64,000 nt of DNA from NCBI GenBank assembly GCA_964016885.1, contig OZ024744.1, positions 108,128,001-108,192,000 of the forward strand. The letters run 5' to 3'. How positions within the stretch are numbered: position 1 is the first letter of the stretch; each line of letters opens with the position of its first letter. The notes beneath the pieces were generated by a model, which searched no databases, was not told the DNA's origin, and saw nothing but the letters and a program-made list of their open reading frames with translations. Position numbers and translations under genes: made by a program. This DNA is from Eledone cirrhosa. Lineage: Eukaryota. Shown one piece after another: positions 28,943 through 29,355 of this stretch.

Positions 28943-29132
28943 GTTTATGTTGGTTGTATACCAACACCTTAGCGTCACTGAAGGACATCCCCCCACCTGA
29001 CAAACGAGAACACACCAGTGATACCCCCACCCAACTTTATTTTACACTACTCCGGAGTAACCAAACCAACCTGCGCACTTCGTCGAGTGCTCCAGCCTGC
29101 ATACTGAGGTGTTGGTATACAACCAACATAAA
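28943..29132. repeat. Segment bounded by about 30-bp inverted repeats (MITE-like or fold-back)
   Basis: GTTTATGTTGGTTGTATACCAACACCTTAG versus CTGAGGTGTTGGTATACAACCAACATAAAC, one mismatch. Confidence 0.75.
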
Positions 29133-29355
29133 CTCAAAATCTATATATATACATATATATACGTATATATATACATATATATATATACGTATATATATAC
29201 ATACATCAAAATCTATCTAGCTCCCACACGGGTTGAGCGCTTCAAACAGACCTAAGTCACTATGGATAAACTGGCAACCTTGGCGTCGCTGGGGGACGTC
29301 CCCCTGCCTGATGGGCGAGAGTGCACCGGTGATACTTTTATTTAACTTTATTTTA

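Follow-up and report, generated by a model that had tools for sequence, protein, structure and literature searches.

How can two neighboring copies of one 79-nt sequence come to differ at 22 positions, and at every one of them with the same polarity? The question is raised by a locus of Eledone cirrhosa located in the window, the whole stretch of 64,000 nucleotides that was analyzed (contig OZ024744.1, positions 108,128,001 to 108,192,000); coordinates below are those of the window. Copy 1 (28966-29044) and copy 2 (29277-29355) align without gaps over 79 nt and show 22 differences, 12 A/G and 10 C/T, with no transversions. The recount reproduced exactly the gapless pair, the single polarity, and the absence of transversions described in an earlier reading of the sequence alone. 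Conditional on transitions only, the chance of one polarity at 22/22 sites is 5e-7. As to CpG decay, to which that reading had granted a partial role, the G/C version of the differing site falls within a CpG in only 3 of the 22 cases. An inverted repeat does surround copy 1, as stated there (28943-28972 against about 29104-29133). In the assembled orientation, the copies are direct repeats and give no arm-arm pairs on either strand. Three origins had been offered: a relic of an hpRNA-like structured RNA with an inverted arm, retrocopying of a duplex whose two arms ADAR had hyper-edited, and strand-specific deamination of single-stranded DNA. From sequence comparison, the copies very probably stem from a hairpin RNA that was hyper-edited by ADAR and then retrocopied, one arm being inverted during or after integration. 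The parts of the locus are listed here, with the element numbered from its start codon (ATG = 1).

28878..28942, no strand: (TATG)n array in the left flank, a target site or a remnant of the source flank.
28943..28965, minus strand: inverted 23-nt piece of the pseudo-LTR of a Penelope-like element (PLE), element -84..-62, from family comparison; left end of the flipped segment, where the hairpin loop of the modeled RNA begins; A changed at 0/10.
28966..29044, plus strand: copy 1, ORF nt 16-72 joined to pseudo-LTR -172..-151, from family alignment; antisense arm of the modeled duplex under the flip model; T>C relative to the family at 10 sites (28994, 29001, 29011, 29025-29028, 29030-29032), equivalent to minus-strand A>G.
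29045..29140, plus strand: continuation of the pseudo-LTR to the usual second 3' end of the family, from family comparison; 96 nt identical to a real copy (L064); minus-strand A changed at 0/20.
29141..29205, no strand: (TA)n tract that contains 7 C and 2 G and closes the flipped segment on the right; once flipped it is G-type, as the neighboring tracts are.
29206..29276, plus strand: pseudo-LTR -61 to ORF nt 15, with the ATG at 29262 and one 6-nt deletion, from family comparison; hairpin loop in the model; A changed at 0/23.
29277..29355, plus strand: copy 2, ORF nt 16-72 and pseudo-LTR with the same junction as copy 1, from family alignment; sense arm of the modeled duplex, terminating at the commonest 3' end of the family; A>G relative to the family at 12 sites (29282, 29288, 29292, 29293, 29298, 29306, 29313-29315, 29321, 29323, 29328).
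29356..30382, no strand: (TA)n tract in the right flank, with 130 G and 0 C by base count.

Compared with the rest of the 3.0-Gb assembly, both copies are identified as stubs of a young family of Penelope-like retroelements. The family element, based on 20 longer stretches compared, is about 4.1 kb long with terminal direct repeats, and one member (L065) carries an ORF of 892 aa. Searches of the ORF against Pfam and the PDB gave no useful match; its ESM Atlas neighbors at 0.95-0.98 carry HTH_animal, GIY-YIG, and RVT_1, each on part of the members. Read by eye, the ORF presumably contains RT and C-terminal GIY-YIG motifs. In the pseudo-LTR, we take a core with two stems, also read by eye, to be hammerhead-like; the predicted fold of this motif has a z of -1.9, and an Rfam search for a hammerhead in the pseudo-LTR returned no match. 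Pseudo-LTRs, partial tandems, and an inverted 5' partner are all present in the family, and its copies end at two fixed points, each running into (TA)n. The inverted 5' piece was found in 21 of 29 family loci. Its outer end coincides with one of the two fixed points in 12/12 loci where it is visible, and in 10 of those 12 the inverted piece overlaps the direct piece and thereby creates a hairpin. A 29-nt segment of the family has 4,029 matches in the assembly, and the copies differ from one another by a few percent, with mixed directions of change. The opposite-strand pairs (L097-L116) are mostly short hairpin mini-elements built from a couple of pseudo-LTR arms; their inner ends recur at element positions of about 3747-3800, 3860, and 3892, and all of these pairs are unedited. 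According to the available text of PMC8557442, canonical EN+ Penelope-like elements combine a single ORF of RT followed by GIY-YIG with pseudo-LTRs, an inverted 5'-truncated partner, microsatellite targets, and a hammerhead-like motif; the family has the pseudo-LTRs, inverted partner, and microsatellite targets of this architecture and presumably the other two features. Its putative C-terminal endonuclease motif speaks against Naiad in the sense of that text, which calls the origin of the tandem and inverted PLE structures unresolved and, unlike the present analysis, makes no mention of edited retrocopies.

The two copies come from one recent ancestor, because the junction between ORF nt 72 and pseudo-LTR -172 occurs only twice in the 3.0-Gb assembly, both times at the window locus. 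Each difference was polarized against the family, as the earlier reading had recommended, using the 29 family rows that best matched a copy-2 query. All 22 changes proved to be derived: copy 2 carries 12 A>G and copy 1 carries 10 T>C, with no change of any other kind. The ancestral base was present in 29/29 or 28/29 family rows at each of the 22 sites. One of these sites is C in older copies and T in 32/32 rows of the young subfamily, and the window locus carries both markers of that subfamily. Derived A>G in copy 2 and derived T>C in copy 1 therefore represent one chemistry acting on opposite strands. The earlier concern that homologs might reveal diverged subfamilies with mixed directions is not borne out, as all 22 changes belong to this one chemistry. 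Counting against the retrocopy reading, an unedited source element with the ORF72/pLTR-172 junction was not found in the assembly. When the assembly was searched for further copies with an edited ORF-start arm, the window locus alone was returned.

The sequence-only reading had further suggested that flipping 28943-29132 would produce a long wobble-rich hairpin. The hairpin itself stands, with 79 arm-arm pairs of which 22 are G.U, but the segment to be flipped is 28943-29205. When 28943-29205 is flipped, the piece left of copy 1 comes to adjoin the one at 29206, 63 nt that are present verbatim in 25/29 family loci are restored, and the C-type TA tract becomes G-type. Flipping 28943-29132 folds equally well and does not restore the family junction. 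On the strand so flipped, every change is A>G, and the changes are confined to the duplex, with 22/50 A changed there versus 0/53 in the three unpaired pieces (p=6e-9), where the duplex is a model that depends on the flip. The two arms have 12/25 and 10/25 A changed. The AU-rich end of the helix is free of changes. Counting against the reading, copy 2 shows none over its last 28 nt and the antisense arm none over its first 12 nt, although both stretches lie inside the modeled duplex. Because the ancestral helix was perfect Watson-Crick, the G.U pairs can be understood as the DNA image of I.U pairs. The best reading of the G.U compatibility is thus a by-product of I.U pairing, not a selected wobble helix.

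In L1 twin priming, the 5' part of the RNA is inverted, and its outer end adjoins the start of the direct piece. The window locus shows the same adjacency, with -62 next to -61; a reciprocal DNA inversion predicts likewise. The family differs from L1 in element class and in that its internal priming takes place mostly at two fixed TA-homologous sites, whereas the flipped piece of the window locus ends (-62) 14 nt short of the usual site. We place the flip at integration, given that inversion is routine in the family and that the two breakpoints are adjacent; the twin-priming step is weakened because -62 is not among the two inversion ends of the family. On balance, the flip probably occurred through a second, internal priming at integration resembling twin priming. 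A later DNA inversion is a less likely though serious candidate, and a local misassembly that merely gives the appearance of a flip is unlikely.

The sequence context of the changes is consistent with ADAR, which spares A after G (PMC8586724 and PMC5625713, in their available text), a rule that holds across metazoan RNA according to the accessible part of PMC5625713. At the window locus, A after G was changed at 1/8 sites versus 21/41 for other A, which is not significant alone (p=0.059). At five other loci, described below, the corresponding values were 6/40 and 100/260 (p=0.004), and pooling of all loci gave 7/48 and 121/301 (p=6e-4). The neighbor-base check proposed in the sequence-only reading as a means of telling ADAR from APOBEC thus reveals a depletion of 5'-G when the loci are pooled. 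The host also appears to encode the enzyme. Matches to A_deamin are present at four places in the genome, and one A_deamin exon scores 345 bits to human ADAR2 and 194 to ADAR1.

Clustered A>G changes are present in other copies of the family. A pseudo-LTR search pattern with two G's fixed, which accounts for two forced G's per extra locus, gave 3 matches, all of which carry another 2-4 G's within 29 nt; the unforced pattern gave 4,029. A second pattern, with sites picked from the first three matches, returned the same three and two more. The matching G>A control pattern had 0 matches in the assembly. Among the antisense-arm patterns, one had 0 matches, and two gave 1 each, both being L085. With polymorphic positions masked, the counts are 20 A>G plus 1 other change for L084 and 30 and 12 A>G plus 3 others for L086. 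Weaker cases are L090 (18 A>G and 14 others), which belongs to an older subfamily, and L091 (7 A>G and 4 others). No partner arm exists within the locus for L084, L086, and L090, and their duplex is assumed; the inside/outside counts of L084, L086, L090, and L091 were discounted as evidence, as the spans were set by the edits. The A>G background in 55 unedited rows was 71/5,805, and no cluster was found in 40 unselected family loci, 20 of which had been picked as opposite-strand pairs. In total, at least five clustered copies, three clear and two weaker, exist among about 4,000 family segments, and this is a lower bound. Two further copies are located as follows.

G000:C1:391161176-391164204, at about 1478-1880: L085, a hairpin PLE copy, from the masked A>G count and the fold.
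G000:C97:3435-6463, at about 1375-2215: L086, with an inverted and a direct piece, from the masked A>G count.

In its assembled form, L085 makes a hairpin of about 140 bp, and it is the copy with arms in inverted orientation that the earlier reading had proposed to seek: it is unflipped, and both arms are edited on one strand. One arm shows A>G at 16/49 and the other T>C at 13/45, at different sets of sites. Inside the inverted repeat, 29/94 A were changed versus 0/18 outside, and 0/17 were changed beyond the repeat on the arm that reaches past it. The two pieces of L086, one inverted and one direct, share 33 nt, within which 13/14 A sites have the same state (8 G and 5 A). The chance of such agreement is 0.001-0.02 if single sites agree at a rate of 0.5-0.65; for other edited loci the agreement is 7-10/16. 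The shared pattern fits either two primings on one edited RNA or remobilization of an already edited copy.

Here, we propose how the window locus may have arisen. The starting step is observed in the family, which integrates routinely into (TA)n and in which an inverted 5' piece overlapping the direct piece creates hairpin elements. An internally deleted hairpin element with perfect 79-bp arms would have been transcribed and folded. The substitution pattern suggests that ADAR then deaminated 12/25 A in one arm and 10/25 in the other. The RT of the family would have copied the edited RNA in the germ line, with I read as G. The flip of 28943-29205 would finally have turned the antisense arm into a direct repeat displaying T>C.

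The closest alternative is that adenine was deaminated in DNA, by ADAR or another deaminase, in a folded cDNA or in the DNA strand of the hybrid during reverse transcription. ADARs act on DNA in RNA:DNA hybrids, the A>G chemistry would be identical, and the reverse-transcription intermediate exists anyway. A hybrid, however, spans the whole copied length, yet 0/53 A outside the 79 nt were changed. The arms of L085, with their different changes, lie on one physical strand and are changed inside the inverted repeat, as expected of a folded single strand, and the known folded single-strand substrate of ADAR is RNA, as stated in the available text of PMC2873906. The changes in L086 are older than copying because its two separately copied pieces share one pattern. 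DNA deamination is therefore very unlikely. A sequencing, polishing, or assembly artifact near hairpins and (TA)n tracts is slightly less likely still. The reads examined span neither copy 2, nor the edited arms of L085, nor the flip junctions, and L086 is on a small unplaced contig. Against an artifact, run X1 yields a short-read contig that agrees with 28958-29061 without a single difference and so carries copy 1, the only copy covered by read support; the run possibly derives from the sample used for the assembly. Most of the unselected loci free of clusters also have hairpins or TA flanks, and errors would ignore the limits of the duplex, the 5'-G rule, and the placement on opposite strands in a direct repeat.

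The other two origins in the sequence-only reading fare worse. A relic of a selected, wobble-rich structured RNA with an inverted arm agrees with the 79 pairs and 22 G.U of the flipped model and is nevertheless scarcely credible. The family base at every G.U is the Watson-Crick partner, so that the ancestral helix was perfectly paired, and each G.U is a one-off derived change private to the window locus. The sequence is that of a transposon ORF start and pseudo-LTR, the copies are direct repeats as assembled, and an Rfam search of 27500-33000 returned TA-repeat matches only, all below the gathering score. Strand-specific deamination of cytosine in single-stranded DNA is excluded by the direction of the derived changes: it would have left C>T and G>A, whereas A>G and T>C are seen. 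The same mismatch, together with the G>A control, speaks against a reading by divergence of two subfamilies, by CpG decay, or by cytosine deamination of the APOBEC type, to which we attach just as little credence as to the structured-RNA relic. In its favor, 1/22 sites varies between subfamilies and 3/22 are in CpG; against it, both copies have a unique junction in common, and ordinary family copies vary in mixed directions. The junction, the polarization, and the young-subfamily rows refute it. ADAR hyper-editing of both arms of a duplex, the remaining origin, is supported by the polarization, the confinement to the duplex, the neighbor preference, and the unflipped hairpin of L085. The window locus is without evident function: it is a dead stub and a record of editing.

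Comparable records have been described in other systems. The A-to-G hypermutation of the avian retroviruses RAV-1 and ALV and of HTLV-2/STLV-3, in the accessible text of PMC8586724, is alike in that the RNA template was edited by ADAR and the edits were fixed by RT. Those are exogenous retroviruses from isolates or cell culture, whereas here a non-viral retroelement in an animal assembly is involved, and, unlike in those retroviruses, both arms of the edited duplex are preserved at the window locus. APOBEC "DNA editing" of LTR retrotransposons (PMC4866542 and PMC2873906, available text) is similarly recognized by single-copy clusters of one change type read against the family majority. It differs in being sense-strand G>A from cytosine deamination of cDNA in vertebrates, while the window locus has A>G on either strand of the element and in duplex regions only; in the same accessible text, such editing was reported absent from 19 invertebrates. 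ADAR hyper-editing of metazoan inverted repeats, as presented in the available text of PMC5625713, shares the A>G clusters in duplexes and the depletion of an upstream G, and it concerns RNA reads against an unedited genome, whereas here the edits are in genomic DNA. Ectopic L1 RNA showed no editing over >2.5 kb, according to the accessible part of PMC5224506, and ADAR is unmentioned in the available text of a retrozyme preprint (10.64898/2026.07.22.740005). A search of the openly available literature showed no account of genomic PLE or non-LTR retrocopies that carry ADAR edits.

The locus provides sequence evidence that A-to-I RNA edits can turn heritable via a non-viral retroelement, an adenosine counterpart of the APOBEC-edited retroelements. 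It would imply ADAR activity on retroelement RNA in cells contributing to the germ line. Such edited copies are rare. As the edit pattern marks one RNA molecule, it may be a tool for tracing the origin of tandem and inverted PLE insertions, and L085, L086, and the window locus could be used to separate fold-back, twin priming, and later inversion. A broader proposal, which we regard as speculative and somewhat doubtful, is that the PLE RT writes ADAR-edited dsRNA into the germ line often (at least 0.1% of family segments), that the edits barcode single RNAs, and, at its boldest, that some G-only or C-only (TA)n tracts are copied-back edited (UA)n RNA. If it were true, past editing in the germ line could be read from the genome as a fossil record, and the 13/14 agreement in L086 would mean that the inverted end and the body of a PLE were primed twice on one RNA.

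Long (TA)n tracts with G-only or C-only interruptions on one strand are common (29356-30382, 30990-31207, L100, and L113). The tract at 29356-30382 was considered as edited (UA)n RNA, which is not supported as a rule. In 25 flanks of ordinary family ends from 40 loci, isolated G numbered 15 and isolated C 32, with 3 versus 6 tracts; in another set of 21 flanks, the numbers were 51 G and 5 C, and four tracts supplied most of them. G-only tracts also lie beside unedited copies (L100 and L113), and the tract at 30990-31207, with the same make-up as 29356-30382, is next to another element. The G-only tract right of copy 2 cannot be credited to editing. Such tracts may have arisen by slippage of TATG/TG units or from edited RNA. 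L084 is flanked by TA tracts of both kinds, C-type to the left and G-type to the right.

Other repeats surround the locus. A broken RT of another non-LTR element (28107-28867, minus strand; Pfam RVT_1, E 4.8e-5) abuts the (TATG)n array and presumably resembles R4/Dong-type elements. To the right, a 640-nt element is repeated three times in tandem with (TATG)n tails (30382-32530), and a 12-nt motif that it has in common with the PLE ORF start is probably due to chance. A 41-nt minisatellite occupies 26000-26220 and the region upstream, and strongly skewed simple arrays are present at 2001-6000 (G/T-rich) and at 33190-34140, the latter being (CCA)n.
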